Notes: generated by a model from the sequence alone, not told the origin. A stretch of DNA of 64,000 nt from Candidatus Bathyarchaeia archaeon (GCA_038883795.1 JAVZLK010000002.1:1-64000); one strand, 5' to 3'. Positions 44,979-54,518 are shown, numbered from the stretch's first letter. A program made the numbers and translations.

Positions 44979-45461
44979 ATGGAAACTTTTCCAAAAAGAA
45001 TATACACTCATAAAGAGGTTAAAAAAGCAAAGGAATTTGTCGATAAGGGCTATAAGCATCGTTTAAAAATTAAGGGAGATGCTGTCTTTAAAGAAAAAGT
45101 ACGCCAAGCCCTTAAGCTTGTTAAAACTGCTGGTTACTACGACTTTTTGAGGACTTATATTCGCTGTATCGTTGAAATTGATGGTTTGACACAGCTTAGG
45201 GAATCGGAAGCTTCTATTTGGGCAAACAGGTATGCTGTAGAGAATCCCATAGATGCGGCCAGTTTGTTTGTGCAAAAGGCACATCACATGCAAGAGTATT
45301 TGGAAGGCAAACTTTATTATGGTGGCATGGCTGAGAAGCGTTCCGTTGAAGTGCGCATGGAATTTCTTAAAAAATTAATGGAGAAAAGCCGAAAGAAAGA
45401 TGTTAAGAATGAGTGTGAAAAGCTTCTAAAAATTTGGAGTGAAAGTTTCCTAATTTATTAA
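44979..45461 (+). CDS. Hypothetical protein, possible degenerate zincin fold
   Basis: 160-aa ORF; AASLFVQKAHH where zincins have HExxH, followed by a downstream E (AEKRS). Confidence 0.6.
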   Translation: METFPKRIYTHKEVKKAKEFVDKGYKHRLKIKGDAVFKEKVRQALKLVKTAGYYDFLRTYIRCIVEIDGLTQLRESEASIWANRYAVENPIDAASLFVQKAHHMQEYLEGKLYYGGMAEKRSVEVRMEFLKKLMEKSRKKDVKNECEKLLKIWSESFLIY

Positions 45462-45841
45462 GCGGATTCAACTCTGATTTTTGTTCCGCTCTTGACTTGT
45501 TTAAATAATTCGAGGTTTTTGGTGATTTTGCCCAAAACATTAACTGGGCTGTAAGGCTGTGATTCTCCATAAAATATGCATAGGGCGCTTCCCATGGGCC
45601 AGAAGGCTATTGTTCCCTTTTCTACAGAGCTTTTTGCTTTTTCCTCTCCCATTTTGATTGGTGTTTCAAAGTATACTTCTTCTTTCCATAGGGCGGCTCT
45701 GCCTTCTATTGGAAGTTTTCTGACTAGCATGTCTACTGTTCTTGGTGCTAGAAAACGCACAAGCTCTCCTTCTGCCTCTCCCAATCCTTCAACTATAAAC
45801 TTTATTTTTACACGCGAAATTTCCTGTTCTTCAGCGCTCAC
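45458..45841 (-). CDS. Cyclophilin-like fold protein (DUF369/TM1367 type)
   Basis: AP.T...LPIEG....W.EEVYF, G.IAFWP.G.ALCIFYG, SPVNVLG. Confidence 0.85.
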   Translation of the reverse strand: MSAEEQEISRVKIKFIVEGLGEAEGELVRFLAPRTVDMLVRKLPIEGRAALWKEEVYFETPIKMGEEKAKSSVEKGTIAFWPMGSALCIFYGESQPYSPVNVLGKITKNLELFKQVKSGTKIRVESA

Positions 45842-47169
45842 TATTTCCCACCTCTTTTGAGGAACTCTTCCAATATTTGCTCAAGGGTTACTGGACCCAA
45901 AACTTGGAGTTCATATTTCACTCTTACCGTTGGTTTGCTTAATGTCATGACCCTTCTTAGGTCGATGGGTGTTCCTATCACTACGACGTCGCAGGGTGTT
46001 CGGTCAATGGTTTCTTTAAGTTCAGCTATTTGTTTCTCTCCATAACCCAGTGCAGGGAGGATTTTTCCCAAATGAGTATATGCCTTATAGGCTTCTTTTA
46101 TTGAACCAACAGCATAAGGTCTCGGGTCAACAATTTCGCTGGCTCCAGACTTTTGCGCCATTATTGTTCCAGCTCCATAAGGCATATTTCCATGCGTCAA
46201 TGTGGGTCCATCCTCAATTACTAGCGCACGTTTTCCCCTGACCAGTTCTGGATTGTCAGCTGTTACTGGCGAGGCTGCCTCCAGAATTAGGGCGTTAGGA
46301 TTAACCTTCTTTACGTTTTCTTTGACCTTTTCTACATTTTCTGGTTGTGCCGTGTCCACCTTATTTATTATCACGACGTTTGCCATTCGCAAATTGGCTT
46401 CTCCAGGGTGATAAGTTAGTTCGTGTCCCGCTCTGTGGGGGTCTGCCACGACTATGTGTAAGTCTGGTTTGTAGAAAGGTATGTCATTGTTGCCTCCATC
46501 CCAAACAATGATGTCTGCTTCCTTTTCAGCTTCGTGCAGAATCTTTTCGTAGTCCACGCCCGCATAAACAATTATGCCATTGTCAATGTGAGGTTCATAT
46601 TCTTCTCTTTCCTCGATAGTGCAGTGGTATTTGTCCAAGTCTTCATAAGAAGCGAATCTTTGGCAAATCTGCTTTGTTAAGTCGCCGTAGGGCATTGGAT
46701 GTCTGATGGCGACAACCCTTAAACCTTTATTTTTTAAGATTTTTGCAACTTGCCTTGAAGTTTGGCTTTTCCCCGAACCAGTTCTAACAGCGCCCACAGA
46801 AATCACTGGAACTTTTGCCTTCAACATTGTTGTTTTGGGTCCCATTAAGCGGAAATCTGCCCCGCTTGACAATGCTATGGACGCTTTATGCATGACATAT
46901 TCGTGGGAGACATCGCTGTACGCGAAAATCACTTCATCAACGTCATGCTGCTTTATTAATGTAGGCAGTTTTTCTTCAGGGTAAATTGGTATTCCTTTAG
47001 GATAATTTGGGCCTGCAAGTTCAGTGGGATATGTTCTGCCTTCAATGCCCGGAATTTGTGTGGCTGTGAAAGCGACAACCTCGTAGGCCTCATTGTTTCG
47101 GAAGTAAACGTTAAAGTTATGGAAGTCTCTACCCGCGGCTCCCATTATAATAACCTTAACTTTTTTCAT
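45841..47169 (-). CDS. arcE: COG2403 P-loop ligase; probable arginine synthetase (ArcE-type), cDPG synthetase-related
   Basis: IMGAAGRDFHNFN, AFTATQIP, RTGSGKSQT, RHPMPYG, EEREEYEPH, WDGGNND, EDGPTLTHG. Confidence 0.7.
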   Translation of the reverse strand: MKKVKVIIMGAAGRDFHNFNVYFRNNEAYEVVAFTATQIPGIEGRTYPTELAGPNYPKGIPIYPEEKLPTLIKQHDVDEVIFAYSDVSHEYVMHKASIALSSGADFRLMGPKTTMLKAKVPVISVGAVRTGSGKSQTSRQVAKILKNKGLRVVAIRHPMPYGDLTKQICQRFASYEDLDKYHCTIEEREEYEPHIDNGIIVYAGVDYEKILHEAEKEADIIVWDGGNNDIPFYKPDLHIVVADPHRAGHELTYHPGEANLRMANVVIINKVDTAQPENVEKVKENVKKVNPNALILEAASPVTADNPELVRGKRALVIEDGPTLTHGNMPYGAGTIMAQKSGASEIVDPRPYAVGSIKEAYKAYTHLGKILPALGYGEKQIAELKETIDRTPCDVVVIGTPIDLRRVMTLSKPTVRVKYELQVLGPVTLEQILEEFLKRGGK

Positions 47170-47250
47170 GACACTAATCCTCCATTAGAACTCTAACAAG
47201 AGGATTCAATACTACCTAAATCATTCCATATAAACCTTAACATGTAACTC

Positions 47251-48354
47251 CTATCCTATCAAATGTAAAACTGTTTCGCCTATAAACTCTATCTGCTCTA
47301 CCGTGACGCCGGGATGAACTGGTAATGAAAAAACTTGCTCTGCAGCTTTTTCTGTTTCTGGAAGCTTGTTTTTTCCAAATTTTCTGTAAAATGGCATTAA
47401 GTGTATAGGATTGGAATAGTAAACCTCTGCGCCTATTCCCTTCCTTTTTAATTCCTCAACAATTTTATCCCTTTCTTTTCTTTTTGCTTTTTTCAATCTG
47501 ACCGTGAAGAGATACCAACTGTGCTTATACCCGTGTGGTTCTTTCGGTAATGTTAATCTATTTGCGTTTTTTAGTCTCCTTTCAAGTTTTTCTGCGTTTT
47601 CTCTTCTTTTCGCCAAAAATTTTGGCAATTTTTCAAGCTGAACATAGCCTATGGCTGCTTCAATTTCTGGCATGCGATAGTTGTATCCCAACATTATCGA
47701 CTTATACTTCTCCACTTCACCGTGGCTTCTCATAAGGCGAATTTTCTCTGCTAATTTTTCATCGTTGGTTGTTATCATTCCTCCTTCTCCAGTCATCATA
47801 TTTTTGCTTGCGTAAAAGCTCCAGCATGCAACATCCGCATATGTTCCCGGGGGTCTTCCCATGTATTGTGCACCATGGGCTTGTGCGGCGTCTTCAACAA
47901 TTTTTAATCCATGTTTTTCGGCAATTTCTCTTATGGGCTTCATGTCTGCTGATAAGCCGTAAAGGTCCACGGGCACTATAGCCTTAGTCTTTTTTGTTAT
48001 GGCTTCTTCAATTTTTTCTGTGGAAATGTTATATGTTTCTGGATTTATGTCTACAAAGACTGGTTTAGCTCCAACCGTGACTATGGCTTCGGCTGTGGCT
48101 ACGAAAGTGAAGCTTGGGAGAATAACCTCATCGCCTGGTTTTACGCTTGCCGCTGCAATTGCCAAGTGTAGAGCTGCTGTTCCTGAGTTTACGGCTATTG
48201 CTTCCTTTGCTCCCACAAAATTTGCGTAGGCTTTCTCAAACTGTGTAACCATTGGGCCGGCGCCAAGTCCATGGGTTAGAACTCCACTTTTTAAAACCTT
48301 AACGACAGCGTCGATTTCCTCTTTTCCTATTTGTGGGGCGTTAATTGGAATCAT
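47251..48354 (-). CDS. DegT/DnrJ/EryC1/StrS sugar aminotransferase
   Basis: NSGTAALH, FTFVATA, EDAAQAHG, SFYASKN, GEGG, GYNYRM. Confidence 0.93.
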   Translation of the reverse strand: MIPINAPQIGKEEIDAVVKVLKSGVLTHGLGAGPMVTQFEKAYANFVGAKEAIAVNSGTAALHLAIAAASVKPGDEVILPSFTFVATAEAIVTVGAKPVFVDINPETYNISTEKIEEAITKKTKAIVPVDLYGLSADMKPIREIAEKHGLKIVEDAAQAHGAQYMGRPPGTYADVACWSFYASKNMMTGEGGMITTNDEKLAEKIRLMRSHGEVEKYKSIMLGYNYRMPEIEAAIGYVQLEKLPKFLAKRRENAEKLERRLKNANRLTLPKEPHGYKHSWYLFTVRLKKAKRKERDKIVEELKRKGIGAEVYYSNPIHLMPFYRKFGKNKLPETEKAAEQVFSLPVHPGVTVEQIEFIGETVLHLIG

Positions 48355-48440
48355 AATTTAACCTTTAAGCTATTATGCTGTTTAGCATTAAATAACTTGT
48401 GTGTTTAAACAATTTGGGTTGAGCTAAAAATTAAAGGGTG

Positions 48441-49064
48441 TTAGTGTATTGGAAAGTTGTTTAAACCTTTTATTCTGTTTAGGAATTCCTCCATTTCCTT
48501 TTCTACTTCTTCCTTTCTCTTTGTCAGAAACTCTAATTCTTCAGATATTTCCTCCAGCCATTCCTTAATAGCTAAATTGCACTCTTCCTTTGTCATTTTT
48601 GCAAGATATTTGGAAATATCTTGTGGAGCACGCTTCTTCAATCGATGAAGTGGACAGTTTATCTTTTGAAATTTTGAAAAGGAGAAAAAGTGTCTTGTTG
48701 AGCGGGGTTTCATGAGACGTCCACTGAGTCCCGCCGAGATAACTTTCTCAACACTTATCTCTTCATCTGGATTGCATATGTAACGGTGGATCCTTCTCCT
48801 TCCAACGCGGATTTTTGGGTTTTGGAAGGCGTCGACGAGAATGGCTGGTATTTGTGTGTAACCGAGGCTTTTTAGCGCAAGCCACCGGTGCATTCCATCT
48901 AATATCACATGAGTTTTTTCATCTGCAATTATCGGATACTTTAGCAAACCATCTCTAAGAATTTCTTGTTTCAGTAGTTCCAAATATAGTGGGGAGCCTT
49001 TTTCGTGGGGTTTTAAAGAGTTTATTGGGAGAAAAACAATTTTGAAATCTTGCTTTTCAGTCAT
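48441..49064 (-). CDS. ParB/Srx-fold protein resembling free serine kinases SerK/SbnI, with C-terminal coiled coil
   Basis: LKPHE, PII, LDGMHRW.AL..LG, and VI..G..G.LM.PRSTRH; ATG 10 nt after trpB2 stop. Confidence 0.75.
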   Translation of the reverse strand: MTEKQDFKIVFLPINSLKPHEKGSPLYLELLKQEILRDGLLKYPIIADEKTHVILDGMHRWLALKSLGYTQIPAILVDAFQNPKIRVGRRRIHRYICNPDEEISVEKVISAGLSGRLMKPRSTRHFFSFSKFQKINCPLHRLKKRAPQDISKYLAKMTKEECNLAIKEWLEEISEELEFLTKRKEEVEKEMEEFLNRIKGLNNFPIH

Positions 49065-49074
49065 CTTCCTTACC

Positions 49075-50430
49075 TTAATGACTGAAGGTTGGAACTTCGA
49101 TTTTTTCCGGTTCATAATCTACTAGTTTGCCGCTGAGGAACTGTTCATAGGCTGTTAAGTCGAGCAAACCATGTCCACTATAATTCATTGCGATTACTTT
49201 TTTCTCGCCAGTTTTCTTACATCTTAATGCTTCATCTATTACGAATTTTAGGCTGTGGGCGGTTTCTGGAGCGATTATTAACCCTTCTGTTTGGGCCAAA
49301 ATTTTGGCAGCTTCGAAAACTTCGTTTTGACTGTAAGCTACAGAGCGCATATACCCCTTATGTATTAGGTAGGATATTGAAGGAGCCATTCCATGATATC
49401 GCAAACCGCCAGCATGAATAGGCGGACACGCATATCCATGTCCAATTGTTAACATTTTCAAAAGCGGTGTCATTTTGCCAGTGTCTCCATAATCATATGT
49501 GTAAACGCCCCTTGTCGTGTGGGGAACAGCCTTTGACTCGCAAGCCACAAATTCCGTGTTTGTCCTGCCTTTGAGTTTGTCCATCATAAAGGGATATGCG
49601 AAGCCTGCATAGTTAGAGCCTCCTCCTATGCATCCACAAACTACGTCTGGGTAAGTATCTATTAGTTCAAACTGTTTCTTGGCTTCTAAGCCAACTATTG
49701 TTTGGTGCATGAGCACGTGATTCAGAACAGAGCCCAAAGAGTATCGTGTGTCTTCGTTTGTAAGTGTGTCTTCTATGGCTTCTGTTATGGCTATTCCCAA
49801 AGTTCCTGGGTTTTCCGGGTTTTCTTTGAGCAGTTTTCTGCCGAAGTTTGTTTGTTCGCTTGGTGATGGAAACATTTCTGCGCCGTAAATTTGCGCTATG
49901 ATTCTTCTGCCTGGTTTTTGGTGATAGCTTGCTCTAACCATGTAGATTCGGCATTTTAATCCGAAAATTGTGCATGAGAAGGCTAAGGCGGTGCCCCATT
50001 GTCCCGCTCCAGTTTCCGTCACTAGTCTTTTTATTCCTTGTTCTTTATTGTAGTAGGCTTGTGCTAGGGCCGTGTTGGTTTTGTGGCTTCCCGTAGGGCT
50101 AAAGTTTTCACATTTAAAGTATATTTGAGCTGGTGTTTTCAGATAACTTTCTAATCTTTTTGCCCTATACAGCGGTGTGGGACGTGGAAGCCTTAGATAT
50201 GCATCCAAAACGTCTTCTGGAATTTTTATGTAGCGTTCTGTGGAAACTTCTTGTTTTATAAGTTCTTTCGCAAATATTCTCTCTAATAATTGTGGGCTTA
50301 TGGGTTTTAGGGTTGTAGGGTCTAATGGTGGCGGTAACGGTTCTGGAAGGTCTGCCTGTATGTTATACCATTCTCTTGGTATTTCTTCCGGGCTGAGAAG
50401 CGTGAAGCTTTCGTTGATTTTTTGATGCAT
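49075..50430 (-). CDS. trpB2: Tryptophan synthase beta chain 2 (TrpB2)
   Basis: WYNIQADLP, RPTPL.RA..LE, GSHK.NTA, TETGAGQWG, GSVLNHV, GGGSN, HAGGLRYHG, SGHG. Confidence 0.95.
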   Translation of the reverse strand: MHQKINESFTLLSPEEIPREWYNIQADLPEPLPPPLDPTTLKPISPQLLERIFAKELIKQEVSTERYIKIPEDVLDAYLRLPRPTPLYRAKRLESYLKTPAQIYFKCENFSPTGSHKTNTALAQAYYNKEQGIKRLVTETGAGQWGTALAFSCTIFGLKCRIYMVRASYHQKPGRRIIAQIYGAEMFPSPSEQTNFGRKLLKENPENPGTLGIAITEAIEDTLTNEDTRYSLGSVLNHVLMHQTIVGLEAKKQFELIDTYPDVVCGCIGGGSNYAGFAYPFMMDKLKGRTNTEFVACESKAVPHTTRGVYTYDYGDTGKMTPLLKMLTIGHGYACPPIHAGGLRYHGMAPSISYLIHKGYMRSVAYSQNEVFEAAKILAQTEGLIIAPETAHSLKFVIDEALRCKKTGEKKVIAMNYSGHGLLDLTAYEQFLSGKLVDYEPEKIEVPTFSH

Positions 50431-50439
50431 ACAGATGCC

Positions 50440-50533
50440 CCTTCATGTATGTTTTTGTTCATTTATGTATGGTAATATACTAAAGATGACACGAACATAT
50501 TTATACTTTACTGCACAAAACAGTACATGAAGG
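50440..50533. promoter_or_regulatory. 19-bp inverted repeat bracketing the divergent trpB2 / ACT-regulator promoter
   Basis: CCTTCATGTATGTTTTTGT (50440-50458) versus ACAAAACAGTACATGAAGG (50515-50533): 16/19 complementary; arms end 9 and 10 nt before the two ATGs. Confidence 0.65.
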
Positions 50534-50543
50534 AACCCGAAAT

Positions 50544-51047
50544 ATGTGGAGCAAAATCGTAAAATACCTAGAAGGCTATCCAGAAAGACTAAAAGTAGCC
50601 AGAGTTCTCGTCGAAAATGGACTAAGCGTAAGAAACGGAAAAATCTACCTTAACGAAATCGAAATCCCACCAGTTCGCATAGCCAGAGTCGCCAAAGTAG
50701 ACAGAAGAACAGTAAACGAGACGCTAAATGCCATCCGCACAAACCACGAACTAAAACAAATCTTTGAAGGATTAAGGTCAGCAGGACACTCTTTAAAAGA
50801 AATTGCCAAACATTTAGACTTTGGAGTTGTTGAAATAACGCCTGTGGATGCTAAAATGCCAGGCATACTTGCAGGCTCCGCCTCACTTCTTGCGAAAGCT
50901 GGTTTAAGCATAAGACAAGCAATAGTTGATGACCCAGAATTGTCGCCTGAACCTAAATTGACTTTGATTGCTGAGAAAAAAATTCCAGGCGAATTAATCC
51001 CAGAACTTTTGAAAATAAAGGGCATAGCCAAAGTTTCAGTTTACTAA
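50544..51047 (+). CDS. Predicted amino-acid metabolism regulator with HTH and ACT domains (COG2150)
   Basis: IARVAKVDRRTV HTH; PGILA, SIRQAIVDDPEL..P.LT ACT domain. Confidence 0.88.
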   Translation: MWSKIVKYLEGYPERLKVARVLVENGLSVRNGKIYLNEIEIPPVRIARVAKVDRRTVNETLNAIRTNHELKQIFEGLRSAGHSLKEIAKHLDFGVVEITPVDAKMPGILAGSASLLAKAGLSIRQAIVDDPELSPEPKLTLIAEKKIPGELIPELLKIKGIAKVSVY

Positions 51048-51134
51048 AATAGTTTTATGTTGGCTATCAGCGTATTAAACCGCTATGAATAATAAAGAGA
51101 TTTAACGGGTAAATTACTCTCAAGAGGTCTGCAG

Positions 51135-54100
51135 ATGCTTAGGATAGGCGTTTACGTTTGCCACTGTGGCTTAAACATTGCTGGCGTGGTTGATGTAGAG
51201 AAAGTGGCTGAATACGCTGGGAAATTGCATGATGTTGTGGTGGCTAAGCATTATGTTTACATGTGTTCTGAAACTGGACAGCGCATGATTAAAGAAGACA
51301 TTAAGGCACATAATCTTGACAGGATAGTTATCGCCACATGTTCGCCGAGGATGCATGAAGAAACCTTCCGCAAAACTGTTGCTGAAGCAGGCTTAAATCC
51401 TTACTTGCTTGAAATCGTCAATTTAAGAGAGCACGTCTCGTGGGTTCACAGCGAAGAGCCAGAAAAAGCTACAGAAAAGGCGAAAGACCTTGTGAGGGTG
51501 GGTGTAGCCCGTGCGAGATTTTTAGAGCCCTTACAAAGAAGTAAAGTGCCTGCTGAGAAGAGTGTTTTAGTTTTGGGCGGTGGAATAGCGGGAATACAAG
51601 CAGCCCTTGATTTAGCCAATGCGGGCTTGAAGGTTTTTTTGGTGGAGAAGTCTCCAAGCATTGGCGGAAAAATGGCTTTACTTGACAAGACATTTCCAAC
51701 CCTTGATTGTAGTGCATGTATATTAACGCCAAAAATGACCGAAGTGGCAAGGCATCAAAATATACAATTGATAACTTGTGCAGAAGTGGAAAACGTATCG
51801 GGTTTTGTAGGCAACTATGAAGTCTCTATAATAAAAAACCCGAGATATGTGGACGAAGCTAAATGCACAGGTTGTGGCGAATGCGAAAAGGTATGCCCAG
51901 TTGCATTACCGAACGAGTTTGAATTGAAGCTTGCCGAAAGAAAAGCCATTTACAGACCCTACCCCCAAGCAGTTCCAAACGTTTACACCATAGACAAAAA
52001 GGGCACAGCCCGCTGCAGAGCCGCTTGTCCAGCAGGCGTAAACGCTCAAGGCTACGTTGCCCTTATAGCAAAGGGAAAATTCAAAGAAGCCTACGAGTTA
52101 ATTAGAAAAGCCATACCATTCCCCGCGGTTTTGGGAAGAGTTTGTTTTCACCCATGCGAGAACGACTGTGAAAGGGGCGATGTTGAGGAGCCAATTGCAA
52201 TTTGCGCCCTAAAACGTTATGTTGCAGATTACATGATGAGACAACCCCAAGAGAAGCCTACTCGAATTCCACCAAAATATGAAGAAAAAATTGCTGTAAT
52301 AGGTGCGGGTCCAGCGGGGTTAACTGCAGCTTACGAATTAGTTAGAATGGGTTATTCAGTAACAGTTTTTGAGGCTTTGCCAGAACCAGGCGGCATGTTA
52401 AGGATAGGCATACCAGAATATAGGCTTCCAAAAAAGATTTTGGCGAAAGAAGTTGAATATTTGGAAAGTTTAGGTGTTCAAATTCGCACTAATGTAACTA
52501 TTGGTAAAGATTTAAGTTTTGAAGATTTGAATAAAATGGGGTATAAGGCAGTTTTCTTAGCCGTTGGCATGCAAAAAAGCCTAACATTAGGCATTGAAGG
52601 AGAAGAATTACAAGGCGTTTTTCAAGGCGTCGAATTCTTAAAAAATGTGAATTTGGGTAAAAAAGTTGAAGTCGGAGAACGTGTCGCCGTAATAGGCGGT
52701 GGAAACGTCGCTATTGACGTTTCAAGAGTTGCATTACGGTTAGGCGCCAAAAAAGTTTACATTCTGTACAGAAGGTCAAGAGAAGAAATGCCCGCATTCC
52801 AACCAGAAGTTGAGCAAGCAGGAAAGGAAGGTGTTGAATTTCTCTTCCTCAAAGCGCCTAAAAGAATCATCGGCGAAAATGGCAGGGTTGTCGCTGTTGA
52901 ATGTTTTGAAATGATGCTCACCGAACCAGATGAAACAGGAAGAAGAAAACCAGTTCCTATCGAAGGTTCAGAACATGTAATTCCAGTGGACACAGTTATC
53001 ACAACCATAGGTCAAGCTTTAGATGTGGCTTCTCTACCGAAAGGGTTGAAGCTGAACCATGGCACAATAGAAGTTGACCCCAAAACTCTTCAAACAAACA
53101 TACCCAACATATTTGCAGGTGGAGACGCAGTTTTGGGTCCAGCCACAGTTATCGAAGCAGTAGCAGCTGGGAAAAGAGCGGCAATTTCCATCCACAAATA
53201 CTTACGGGGCGAAGACTTGAAAGCTATTGAAGAGGAAGAGCTGCCTCCAGTTAAGATATCGCCTAAAATAGGCATTGAGAAAAAGAAAAGGCAAGCCATG
53301 CCTCTTCTGCCAGTTGAAGAAAGAATTAGAAGTTTTGATGAGGTTGAGTTGGGCCTTAGCGAAGAAATGGCTATCGAAGAAGCGAAACGTTGTCTTGCTT
53401 GTGGCGGCTGCTCCGAATGCCTAGAGTGCGAAAAGATATGTGAAGCAAAGGCAATTGACCACAAACAAAGGCTTCAAAGAATAAACGTGAAAGTTGGTGC
53501 AATAATAATTGCCACTGGAAGCGAACTTTTCGATGCCTCAAAAATCCAAGAATACAGTTTCGGAAAATCCAAAAACATAATCACAAACCTCCAATTTGAA
53601 AGACTATGCAATGCTTCTGGACCCACAAGCGGAAAAATCCTTTGCCCACAAAACGGCAAAACACCAAAAGCCGTGACTTTCATCCAATGTGTAGGTTCAA
53701 GGGATTCGAGGTTTCATGAATATTGTTGTCGTATCGGTTGCATGGCAACATTAAAGCAAGCAATCCTCACTCGAGAAAAACTTGGCAAGGAGGTGGATAT
53801 TTATGTTTGTTTTAATGACATGCGGGCTTTTGGTAAGGGTTATGACGAGTTTTATGGGCGAGCAAGAGAAATGGGCATAAACTTTGTCGCTGGCTTGCCC
53901 TCCGAAATCCGCTGCGCCTCTGATGGTTCGCTTTACTTTGACGTTTATGATAAGGGAACAAACAAGCTCTTAGAACTGCGTTCAGACCTTGTTGTGCTTG
54001 CCAGCGGGCTTGTCCCTAACAGCGACTTGGGAAAAATAAGCAGCATATTCCATGTTTCAAGAAGCGCCGATGGCTTCCTATTAGAAGCCCATCCGAAACT

Positions 54101-54518
54101 TCGCCCTCTGGAAAGTGCAATAACTGGAATTTTCATTGCTGGCACATGCCAAGGTCCAAAAGATATCCCCGATACTGTGGCTCAAGCAAGTGGGGCAGCA
54201 GCAAAAGCCATAGACCTTTTGGCAAGTGGGGAGATTGAGCTTGAACCATTGAAAGCAGTTGTTGACGAAGACTTATGCAGTGGCTGTCGCCTTTGCGAGG
54301 CAATATGCCCATTTGTTGCCATAGAGATGAAAACTGAAACTTTGGATGGTGCTGAAAGGGTTAGGGCTGAGGTTGTAGAAGCCATGTGTCAAGGCTGTGG
54401 TTTATGCGTTTCAGCTTGTCCCACTAAGGCTATTATAATGCGCCATTACACTGATGAGCAATTCCTTGCGCAGGTTAAGGCTGCATGTTTAGAAACGGAA
54501 GCCCTTGGAGGTGGCTAA
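51135..54518 (+). CDS. HdrA with inserted GltD/NfnB-like NAD(P)H oxidoreductase module (HdrL-type)
   Basis: HdrA N-terminus (VCHCGLNI, DKTFPTLDCSACIL); insert CRAACP, GRVCFHPCENDC, GAGPAG, GGGNVAID, EAKRCL; then QCVGSRD, GTCQGPKDI, C-terminal ferredoxin. Confidence 0.9.
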   Translation: MLRIGVYVCHCGLNIAGVVDVEKVAEYAGKLHDVVVAKHYVYMCSETGQRMIKEDIKAHNLDRIVIATCSPRMHEETFRKTVAEAGLNPYLLEIVNLREHVSWVHSEEPEKATEKAKDLVRVGVARARFLEPLQRSKVPAEKSVLVLGGGIAGIQAALDLANAGLKVFLVEKSPSIGGKMALLDKTFPTLDCSACILTPKMTEVARHQNIQLITCAEVENVSGFVGNYEVSIIKNPRYVDEAKCTGCGECEKVCPVALPNEFELKLAERKAIYRPYPQAVPNVYTIDKKGTARCRAACPAGVNAQGYVALIAKGKFKEAYELIRKAIPFPAVLGRVCFHPCENDCERGDVEEPIAICALKRYVADYMMRQPQEKPTRIPPKYEEKIAVIGAGPAGLTAAYELVRMGYSVTVFEALPEPGGMLRIGIPEYRLPKKILAKEVEYLESLGVQIRTNVTIGKDLSFEDLNKMGYKAVFLAVGMQKSLTLGIEGEELQGVFQGVEFLKNVNLGKKVEVGERVAVIGGGNVAIDVSRVALRLGAKKVYILYRRSREEMPAFQPEVEQAGKEGVEFLFLKAPKRIIGENGRVVAVECFEMMLTEPDETGRRKPVPIEGSEHVIPVDTVITTIGQALDVASLPKGLKLNHGTIEVDPKTLQTNIPNIFAGGDAVLGPATVIEAVAAGKRAAISIHKYLRGEDLKAIEEEELPPVKISPKIGIEKKKRQAMPLLPVEERIRSFDEVELGLSEEMAIEEAKRCLACGGCSECLECEKICEAKAIDHKQRLQRINVKVGAIIIATGSELFDASKIQEYSFGKSKNIITNLQFERLCNASGPTSGKILCPQNGKTPKAVTFIQCVGSRDSRFHEYCCRIGCMATLKQAILTREKLGKEVDIYVCFNDMRAFGKGYDEFYGRAREMGINFVAGLPSEIRCASDGSLYFDVYDKGTNKLLELRSDLVVLASGLVPNSDLGKISSIFHVSRSADGFLLEAHPKLRPLESAITGIFIAGTCQGPKDIPDTVAQASGAAAKAIDLLASGEIELEPLKAVVDEDLCSGCRLCEAICPFVAIEMKTETLDGAERVRAEVVEAMCQGCGLCVSACPTKAIIMRHYTDEQFLAQVKAACLETEALGGG

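Follow-up and report, generated by a model that had tools for sequence, protein, structure and literature searches.

TrpB2, the stand-alone type of tryptophan synthase beta subunit, has been known for more than 20 years and its physiological role is still debated. To our knowledge, no dedicated source of O-phosphoserine has been described for this enzyme. O-phospho-L-serine is a reported substrate of the class (Busch 2014, as cited in PMC11917138), and members are reported to prefer it, to bind indole tightly (PMC11917138, PMC11535334) and to salvage indole (PMC11535334). The closest described systems in which a kinase of free serine feeds an enzyme dependent on pyridoxal phosphate (PLP) are two. 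SerK (TK0378), the ADP-dependent free L-serine kinase of Thermococcus kodakarensis (PDB 5x0b to 5x0k; 1vk1 is the P. furiosus ortholog), supplies O-phosphoserine to the fold-type-II PLP enzyme CysK (PMC5120207), and SbnI (PDB 5ujd, 5uje, 6nr6), reported to be a free serine kinase as well (PMC12704722, PMC13759103), feeds the PALP enzyme SbnA in the staphyloferrin B pathway of Staphylococcus. Here we describe a locus of an uncultured archaeon from a hot spring, a Candidatus Bathyarchaeia archaeon (GCA_038883795.1, JAVZLK010000002.1:1-64000; this whole stretch of 64,000 nt is hereafter called the window) in which a trpB2 gene is followed by a gene for a SerK/SbnI-like compact ParB-fold protein and preceded by a divergent trpY-family regulator gene. 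We propose, with moderate confidence, that the locus encodes a serine kinase and a phosphoserine-dependent indole salvage enzyme under repression by TrpY.

The trpB2 gene (49075..50430, minus strand, stop included) encodes a protein of 451 aa that passed the models NF009057 (691 bits, cut-off 366) and TIGR01415 (677 bits, cut-off 519), whereas the TrpB1 model TIGR00263 gave 157 bits, under its cut-off of 392. The best relatives in the PDB were the Sulfolobus TrpB2 chains 6hul_B (498 bits) and 4qys and 6hte (465 bits), while TrpB1 chains reached at most 150 bits. By these matches the synthase of the window is a TrpB2, closer to TrpB2 than to TrpB1. The locus differs from the characterised TrpB2 systems (S. 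solfataricus 4qys, 6hte, 6hul; Thermotoga maritima), for which no dedicated phosphoserine source has been named, in that the gene has a fixed kinase-like partner and its carriers mostly have no TrpA. The genome holding the window (G000, 87% complete) has a second TrpB2 paralog outside it (L003:1480-2781, equivalent to G000:C2:95784-97085), a protein of 433 aa and 51% identity to the first; it stands alone between PIMT-like and FEN1-like genes, without a kinase-like neighbour.

The open reading frame of the ParB-fold gene spans 48441-49115 on the minus strand and reaches an ATG at 49115 within trpB2. The TAA stop of trpB2 is followed by 10 nt (GGTAAGGAAG) and then by another ATG at 49064, so that the gene begins 10 nt past its neighbour on the same strand, as had been read initially. 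The start at 49064, giving a protein of 207 aa (48441..49064, minus strand), is preferred because the ten first-listed homologs all measure 207-224 aa. Four sequencing runs yielded only short contig pieces of mixed strains, and a piece that spans the trpB2/kinase junction is no sign of a single transcript; two 'metatranscriptomic' runs are marked 'probably DNA'.

The protein had been called SerK/SbnI-like in the initial annotation, and NCBIfam, the sequence search of the PDB and Foldseek all place SerK and SbnI as its nearest relatives. The best NCBIfam family was SerK (NF053625), with 51.2 bits where the cut-off is 380; the match joins residues 21-99 in the 224-aa reading frame to positions 11-93 of the 244 in the model. 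The SbnI model NF033589 gave 28.5 bits over residues 27-96, too few for membership at a cut-off of 350. Among PDB sequences searched with phmmer, SerK 5x0b was the best (E 2.4e-8), followed by 1vk1 and SbnI (about 1e-6), while ParB/Noc proteins appeared at E 0.018 or worse. Foldseek placed SerK 5x0b first (E 8e-9, TMq 0.55), then 1vk1 and SbnI (1.9e-7), whereas ParB/Noc, sulfiredoxin and similar proteins were found at E of at least 1e-4 and TMq of about 0.3 (0.31 for ParB/Noc). SbnI is hence the second-best relative by both structure and sequence. Pfam gave ParB_N (PF02195) at 20.8 bits, under the gathering score of 26.3, and a weak Prefoldin match over the tail; neither a helix-turn-helix (HTH) nor a ParB C-terminal domain was detected in this search, and the protein did not qualify as a ParB partition protein or CTPase clamp (PF02195, TIGR00180).

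The three motifs claimed for the protein, KPHE, DGxHRW and PxxTRH, occur in the 207-aa translation as KPHE (residues 18-21, 49002..49013), DGMHRW (residues 56-61, 48882..48899) and PRSTRH (residues 120-125, 48690..48707), all encoded on the minus strand. They correspond to KPHE, DGHHRW and, near the C-terminus, PKTTRH of SerK. E21, the proposed catalytic base, aligns with E30 of SerK, which is replaced in 5x0j (E30Q) and 5x0e (E30A), two entries whose titles describe phosphoserine- and AMP-bound structures. E30 is the reported catalytic base of SerK. L55, D56, G57, R60, P73, P120 and H125 are invariant, and E21, H59 and R124 at least 90% conserved, in an alignment of 58 diverse family members that takes in tail-less forms of about 130 aa; among 39 orthologs E21 is invariant.

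The phmmer alignment placed residues 4-82 on SerK 15-95 and, more weakly, residues 106-138 on SerK 206-237. About 110 SerK residues (roughly 96-205, the middle domain) are thus left without counterpart, only some 23 residues joining the two aligned stretches of the window protein. The AlphaFold model built on the 58-sequence alignment (pLDDT 93.1, pTM 0.86) consists of a compact core, with no SerK-type middle domain, and one long coiled-coil-like helix at residues 159-201 (48462..48590, minus strand; pLDDT 94-98), and the tail region also gave weak Prefoldin_2 and Rad50 matches. Both the missing middle domain and the added coiled coil had been described before, and both stand. In summary, the protein shares with SerK a ParB/Srx-like core, KPHE, a DGxHRW motif and a PxxTRH motif, and differs from it in lacking about 110 residues, in gaining a 43-residue C-terminal helix, in having DGMHRW for DGHHRW and in its partner, TrpB2 instead of CysK. 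With SbnI it would have in common the pairing of a ParB-fold serine kinase gene with a PALP enzyme to be fed, but SbnI is a bacterial protein of about 254 aa with a middle region, belongs to a siderophore pathway and carries the NCBIfam name of a bifunctional regulator. From its sequence, the window protein is predicted to be a compact free L-serine kinase.

Conservation of the gene pair was analysed by a synteny scan with one genome per species, which returned 80 loci. Close relatives of the protein, 63-90% identical in the best segment, were present in 73 of them (L004-L076), and in 70 the match covered most of the query; L072, L074 and L076 are cut, and three metagenome-assembled genomes contribute two loci each. 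Their titles are Bathyarchaeia-type or 'uncultured archaeon', except for L050, which is labelled bacterium. When these loci were searched with the window proteins by tblastn, TrpB2 was found directly upstream on the same strand in all 73, and TrpY divergent and adjacent in all 60 with enough upstream sequence. The gap between trpB2 and the kinase-like gene was mostly -4 to +30 nt (65 loci, estimated with a heuristic choice of start). Loss of this adjacency in relatives had been set beforehand as an observation that would count against the proposal; instead, the pair was kept throughout. The seven other loci (L077-L083) hold distant matches to the N-terminal part only and no TrpB2 neighbour. 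An analysis of trpB2 neighbourhoods published in 2007 detected no conserved one besides the trp operons (Merkl 2007, PMC1854888). We are highly confident that trpB2, the ParB-fold gene and trpY form one tryptophan-linked unit.

The unit is also found with other components. Four of the 73 loci (L009, L012, L015, L018), as well as genome G013, have the tail-form gene beside a different type of TrpB2, which is 52-57% identical to that of the window and about 49% to the second paralog of G000. In genomes G087 and G168 (loci L095 and L097), the gene next to the divergent trpY is a tail-less SerK-like gene (142-158 aa), and TrpB2 comes after it, the reverse of the kinase and TrpB2 order of the window; this TrpB2 is 75% identical to the L015 type, and the tail-less protein is 43% identical to the window protein over the core. 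In a maximum-likelihood tree of 40 sequences (midpoint-rooted for drawing only), the TrpB2-linked tail forms made up one clade (99/98), sister to tail-bearing fusion proteins (88/84), and the tail-less TrpB2-linked genes fell in a separate clade (98/97) with CysK- and SepCysS-linked genes. Two non-orthologous SerK-like lineages therefore occupy one TrpY-TrpB2 setting, which points to a function rather than to an inherited gene order.

Two irregularities were seen in the trpB2 genes of these loci. L018 contains, between its divergent-type TrpB2 and the kinase-like gene, a 34-residue remnant (L018:2493-2594) that shares 68% identity with the C-terminal end of a TrpB2 of the window type, which suggests that one TrpB2 was swapped for another in place. 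L036 and L074 match TrpB2 in two frames, possibly because the gene is frameshifted or decaying, or through an error in sequencing.

The divergent gene (50544..51047, plus strand, 167 aa) had been annotated as a COG2150 HTH-ACT regulator. Its Pfam matches to HTH and ACT are weak, and it passed the TrpY_fam model NF053754 with 190.5 bits (cut-off 180) over residues 2-164 of 167, so the assignment holds and can be narrowed to the TrpY family. Between trpY and trpB2 lies a divergent control region of 113 bp (50431..50543) with a TATA-like element and GTAC boxes. This strongly conserved spacer has a length of 100-121 bp in 66 loci. Conservation across 67 regions extends to an ATGTACA adjoining the start of trpY, to a AAAGTATAAATA element in the centre and to as many as three GTAC boxes, spaced by about 10 bp, that precede the ribosome-binding site of trpB2; NGTAC occurred 2.09 times per region against 0.30 in shuffles (n=67, window included). 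The consensus of the TRP box is TGTACA, and in Methanothermobacter thermautotrophicus TrpY controls trpB2. We infer that the GTAC boxes are operator-like and candidate TrpY sites, and that the TrpY of the window would sense tryptophan. According to PMC6737238, the M. thermautotrophicus protein (MtTrpY) binds TRP boxes where the promoters of trpY and trpE overlap, and represses in response to tryptophan. The window regulator is like it in passing the family model and in facing a divergent operon across an overlapping promoter region with repeated boxes, and unlike it in its target, which is trpB2 with the kinase-like gene and not trpEGCFBAD. An Rfam scan of 47000-52000 gave no RNA family, and therefore no T-box or riboswitch is seen there.

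The absence of other trp genes, first noted for the window, extends to the whole of G000, the second trpB2 apart. No TrpA, IGPS, chorismate-binding TrpE, PRAI or TrpD was found above cut-off in this genome, while all 14 control genomes were positive in each of the searches. TrpA and IGPS were likewise not found above cut-off in any of six carrier genomes searched (G000 and five relatives, two of them complete chromosomes), nor TrpE, PRAI and TrpD in any of five, G000 counted. Among 251 genomes sampled from the class, TrpA was present in 111; of the nine with a full-length tail-form gene, eight lacked it at E of 1e-8 or less, and the ninth (G150) has a low-scoring TrpA (137 bits). Within the family of the window, 28 of 33 genomes have TrpA, and the five without it comprise three with the tail-form module, G168 with the tail-less module and G216 with neither; these counts run across related genomes, and kin are not independent. 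SepRS was not found above cut-off in any of five carrier genomes.

A gene of the tryptophanase family of beta-eliminating lyases was found elsewhere in G000 (L137:674-2119, equivalent to G000:C20:24673-26118). Its product scored 604 bits with NF009709, stayed below the TnaA and tyrosine phenol-lyase equivalog cut-offs and has counterparts in four of five carrier genomes in all. It could be an internal source of indole.

The window protein belongs to a large family. A word-indexed search gave 599 relatives, of which the best 120 were 76-100% identical. Among the matches listed, the public names were 'hypothetical protein' or 'ParB N-terminal domain-containing protein', in records of Bathyarchaeia/Bathyarchaeota, and the ESM Atlas returned only Bathyarchaeota clusters of hypothetical proteins. 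An exhaustive search of representatives gave 1168 proteins at E of 0.001 or less. Among them are compact proteins of about 130 aa, longer ones (240-300 aa) in which an insert separates the two motifs, and fusions. Four of the fusions (P0126, P0130, P0136, P0138) are to sugar-phosphate nucleotidyltransferase or cytidylyltransferase-like domains and one (P0131) is to an Asn-synthase domain, while in P0139, a single protein of about 580-600 aa, a CysK/M-like PALP domain follows two compact SerK-like units. The C-terminal helix of the window protein is common to the relatives fused with nucleotidyltransferase or Asn-synthase domains and absent from SerK and SbnI; these tail-bearing fusions suggest pathways that combine a kinase with a nucleotidyltransferase.

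Some other compact members stand beside enzymes with a probable link to phosphoserine. The genome G000 itself has a second compact SerK-like gene (L084:6112-7576, equivalent to G000:C1:173111-174575), located 7 nt before a CysK/M-like gene of 305 aa. The kinase-like paralog scored 61.6 bits with the SerK model and carries the motifs LKQHEE, DGQHRF and PPKTSKH, and its partner gave 337.6 bits with TIGR01136, slightly under the cut-off of 344. The two are likely a serine kinase and phosphoserine sulfhydrylase pair, as predicted from these matches. The context of compact relatives was then surveyed in 21 regions, 20 from the class survey plus one of G150 (G150:C2, L085). Besides the two TrpB2 cases, a CysK-like gene was adjacent in L096, L099 and L100, a weaker CysK-like match (36%) adjoined in L104, and in L103 a CysK-like gene lay 4 kb off. 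Seven regions, all from one genus, lie by a BacA gene or on short contigs, and the remainder are beside unrelated genes. L085 and L098 (G168:C3) encode single proteins of about 580-600 aa in which, as in P0139, a pair of compact SerK-like units is joined to a PALP domain of the CysK/M-like kind. At L101:3779-5434 (G102:C51) a compact SerK-like gene lies about 30 nt behind a SepCysS gene, for which the models NF006810 and TIGR02539 are both passed. In T. kodakarensis, phosphoserine is a reported substrate of CysK-type enzymes (PMC5120207). SepCysS acts on phosphoseryl-tRNA. The TrpB2, CysK-like and SepCysS partners have one metabolite in common, O-phosphoserine.

The proposed route would run as follows. 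The 207-aa ParB-fold protein would phosphorylate free L-serine to O-phospho-L-serine, with ATP, ADP or another nucleotide as the donor, and TrpB2 would condense phosphoserine with scavenged indole to tryptophan and phosphate. The TrpY-family regulator would sense tryptophan through its ACT domain and repress both promoters at the GTAC boxes, and trpB2 and the kinase-like gene would be co-transcribed. Since the de novo pathway is lacking in the carriers, the unit would be their only tryptophan-forming route. We infer the kinase activity and its substrate, the preference of this TrpB2 for phosphoserine, the tryptophan sensing and the co-transcription; every element open to computational test came out as first proposed, and this supports the interpretation. 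The pair resembles the canonical TrpA-TrpB in that two genes form a unit and TrpB receives one of its two substrates from its partner. It differs in that the partner would provide activated serine and not indole. In an extended version of the proposal, which we regard as unlikely, the kinase-like protein would be a stoichiometric subunit of TrpB2 that replaces the indole-producing alpha subunit and hands phosphoserine directly to the PLP site, which would make the pair a novel type of tryptophan synthase, the C-terminal helix serving for docking or oligomerisation; more widely, a mini-SerK superfamily would be a general source of O-phosphoserine for the TrpB2, CysK-type and SepRS/SepCysS routes of archaea.

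Several points weigh against a serine kinase that feeds an indole salvage enzyme. The match to the SerK model, 51 bits where 380 are required, covers the N-terminal part alone, and the middle domain of SerK, with its roughly 110 residues, is missing from the window protein. DGMHRW has Met where DGHHRW of SerK has its first His. Trp or Lys replaces the Arg of TRH in the compact paralogs linked to TrpB2 and CysK, and this Arg is hence not essential to the role they share. A SerK-like archaeal protein is reported to bind CTP rather than ATP (PMC12704722), and the TrpY homolog of T. kodakarensis is reported not to regulate trp genes (PMC6737238). The fusions of the nearest tail-bearing clade hint that close relatives act on other substrates. 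The compact family is present in 72 of 201 genomes of another phylum (centred on G256), and there neither TrpB2 nor a CysK-like gene was found within 1.5 kb in any of 30 loci, the neighbours being housekeeping genes (Cbf5/TruB, PolyA_pol-type, HEAT-repeat); the link to these partners therefore does not hold for the whole compact family. Two module genomes, G150 and G087, do have TrpA. Finally, phosphoserine may already come from 3-phosphoglycerate, the SerA-model matches being ambiguous: in all five carrier genomes they are 2-hydroxyacid dehydrogenases below cut-off.

The first alternative is that the ParB-fold protein phosphorylates some other small molecule, or that TrpB2 carries out some other beta-replacement, so that a different product would be under the control of the TrpY-family regulator. 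We judge this improbable. In the sister clade that shares the tail, the protein is joined to a nucleotidyltransferase or an Asn-synthase domain, an arrangement typical of the activation of an alcohol followed by nucleotidylation, and the change of His to Met here, together with that of Arg to Trp or Lys in the paralogs, could reflect another substrate than that of SerK. The sole characterised relatives are, however, serine kinases, and O-phosphoserine is common to the recurrent partners TrpB2, CysK-like protein and SepCysS. As regards the synthase, the TrpB2 of the window is about as near to the Sulfolobus enzymes (465-498 bits) as these are to each other. A DegT-type aminotransferase gene downstream in 44 of 65 loci might also indicate another product, but it is absent or displaced in the other 21. 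The tryptophanase-family gene of four of the five carriers means that indole and tryptophan metabolism may be more complex than the salvage route alone.

It is still less probable that the protein is non-enzymatic, a nucleotide-binding partner or regulator that takes the allosteric place of TrpA or gates TrpB2 by energy state. The tight coupling and strict co-occurrence with TrpB2 fit such a role, as do the lack of TrpA in most carriers and a conserved long helix that could dock or oligomerise, and ParB-fold proteins are reported to be often nucleotide-dependent switches (PMC12704722). The equivalent of E30 and the phosphate/nucleotide motifs are, however, conserved across members with very different partners, and catalysis therefore fits better than one specific protein contact. 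Moreover, a tail-less subfamily fills the same operon, and the CysK-like fusions parallel the substrate supply of SbnI-SbnA and SerK-CysK. That the gene encodes an ordinary protein of the ParB type (one that binds DNA, switches with CTP or acts as a nuclease), or belongs to a mobile element, and merely lies beside trpB2, as its public names and the weak ParB_N match might suggest, is very improbable, because that match is under the gathering score, no HTH or ParB C-terminal domain was detected, PADLOC found no defence family for this protein or for TrpY, the adjacency is kept in 73 of 73 loci though the flanks vary, and SerK and SbnI come ahead of every ParB/Noc structure by at least four orders of magnitude in E-value.

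Genes flanking the unit were also recorded. Downstream, on the minus strand at 45458-48354, lie genes for the DegT-type aminotransferase, for a 442-aa P-loop protein that distantly resembles cyclic 2,3-diphosphoglycerate synthetase (9sxb, E 2e-6) and for a cyclophilin-like protein, the last overlapping the P-loop gene. This trio is kept in many related loci, not in all. The DegT gene was considered as a member of the unit and placed outside it, because only 44 of the 65 testable loci have it adjacent; in 8 it lies at a greater distance, and 13 lack it. Beyond trpY, a gene of 1127 aa (51135-54518, plus strand) was matched by tblastn in many related loci and has no evident tie to the module; its HdrA-like label comes only from sight of the sequence.

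Among the papers listed in searches of the literature other than subscription papers and supplements, judged in part by title and the start of the abstract, none was seen to describe a pairing of TrpB2 with a SerK-like kinase. The word 'tryptophan' does not occur in the SerK paper (PMC5120207), neither 'TrpB' nor 'tryptophan' in the 2025 survey of ParB-CTPases (PMC12704722), and 'TrpB2' is absent from GapMind 2026. The logic of substrate supply is known from SerK-CysK and SbnI-SbnA; by comparison with these, what appears to be new is the TrpB2 partner and the compact, helix-tailed form of the kinase, so that the same logic would be extended to a third class of PLP enzymes. A fixed, tryptophan-regulated SerK-like partner would be a concrete and testable answer to the question of where TrpB2 obtains its phosphoserine. 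At the cost of one phosphoryl transfer the serine side chain would leave more readily, which would help the cell to capture scarce indole. The proposal would also provide a working function for a large family now named 'ParB N-terminal domain-containing' or 'hypothetical'. Part of the Bathyarchaeia, which are abundant archaea of sediments and hot springs, appears to have dropped the whole tryptophan pathway, and such lineages would rely on the indole of their community and perhaps on their own tryptophanase-family enzyme.

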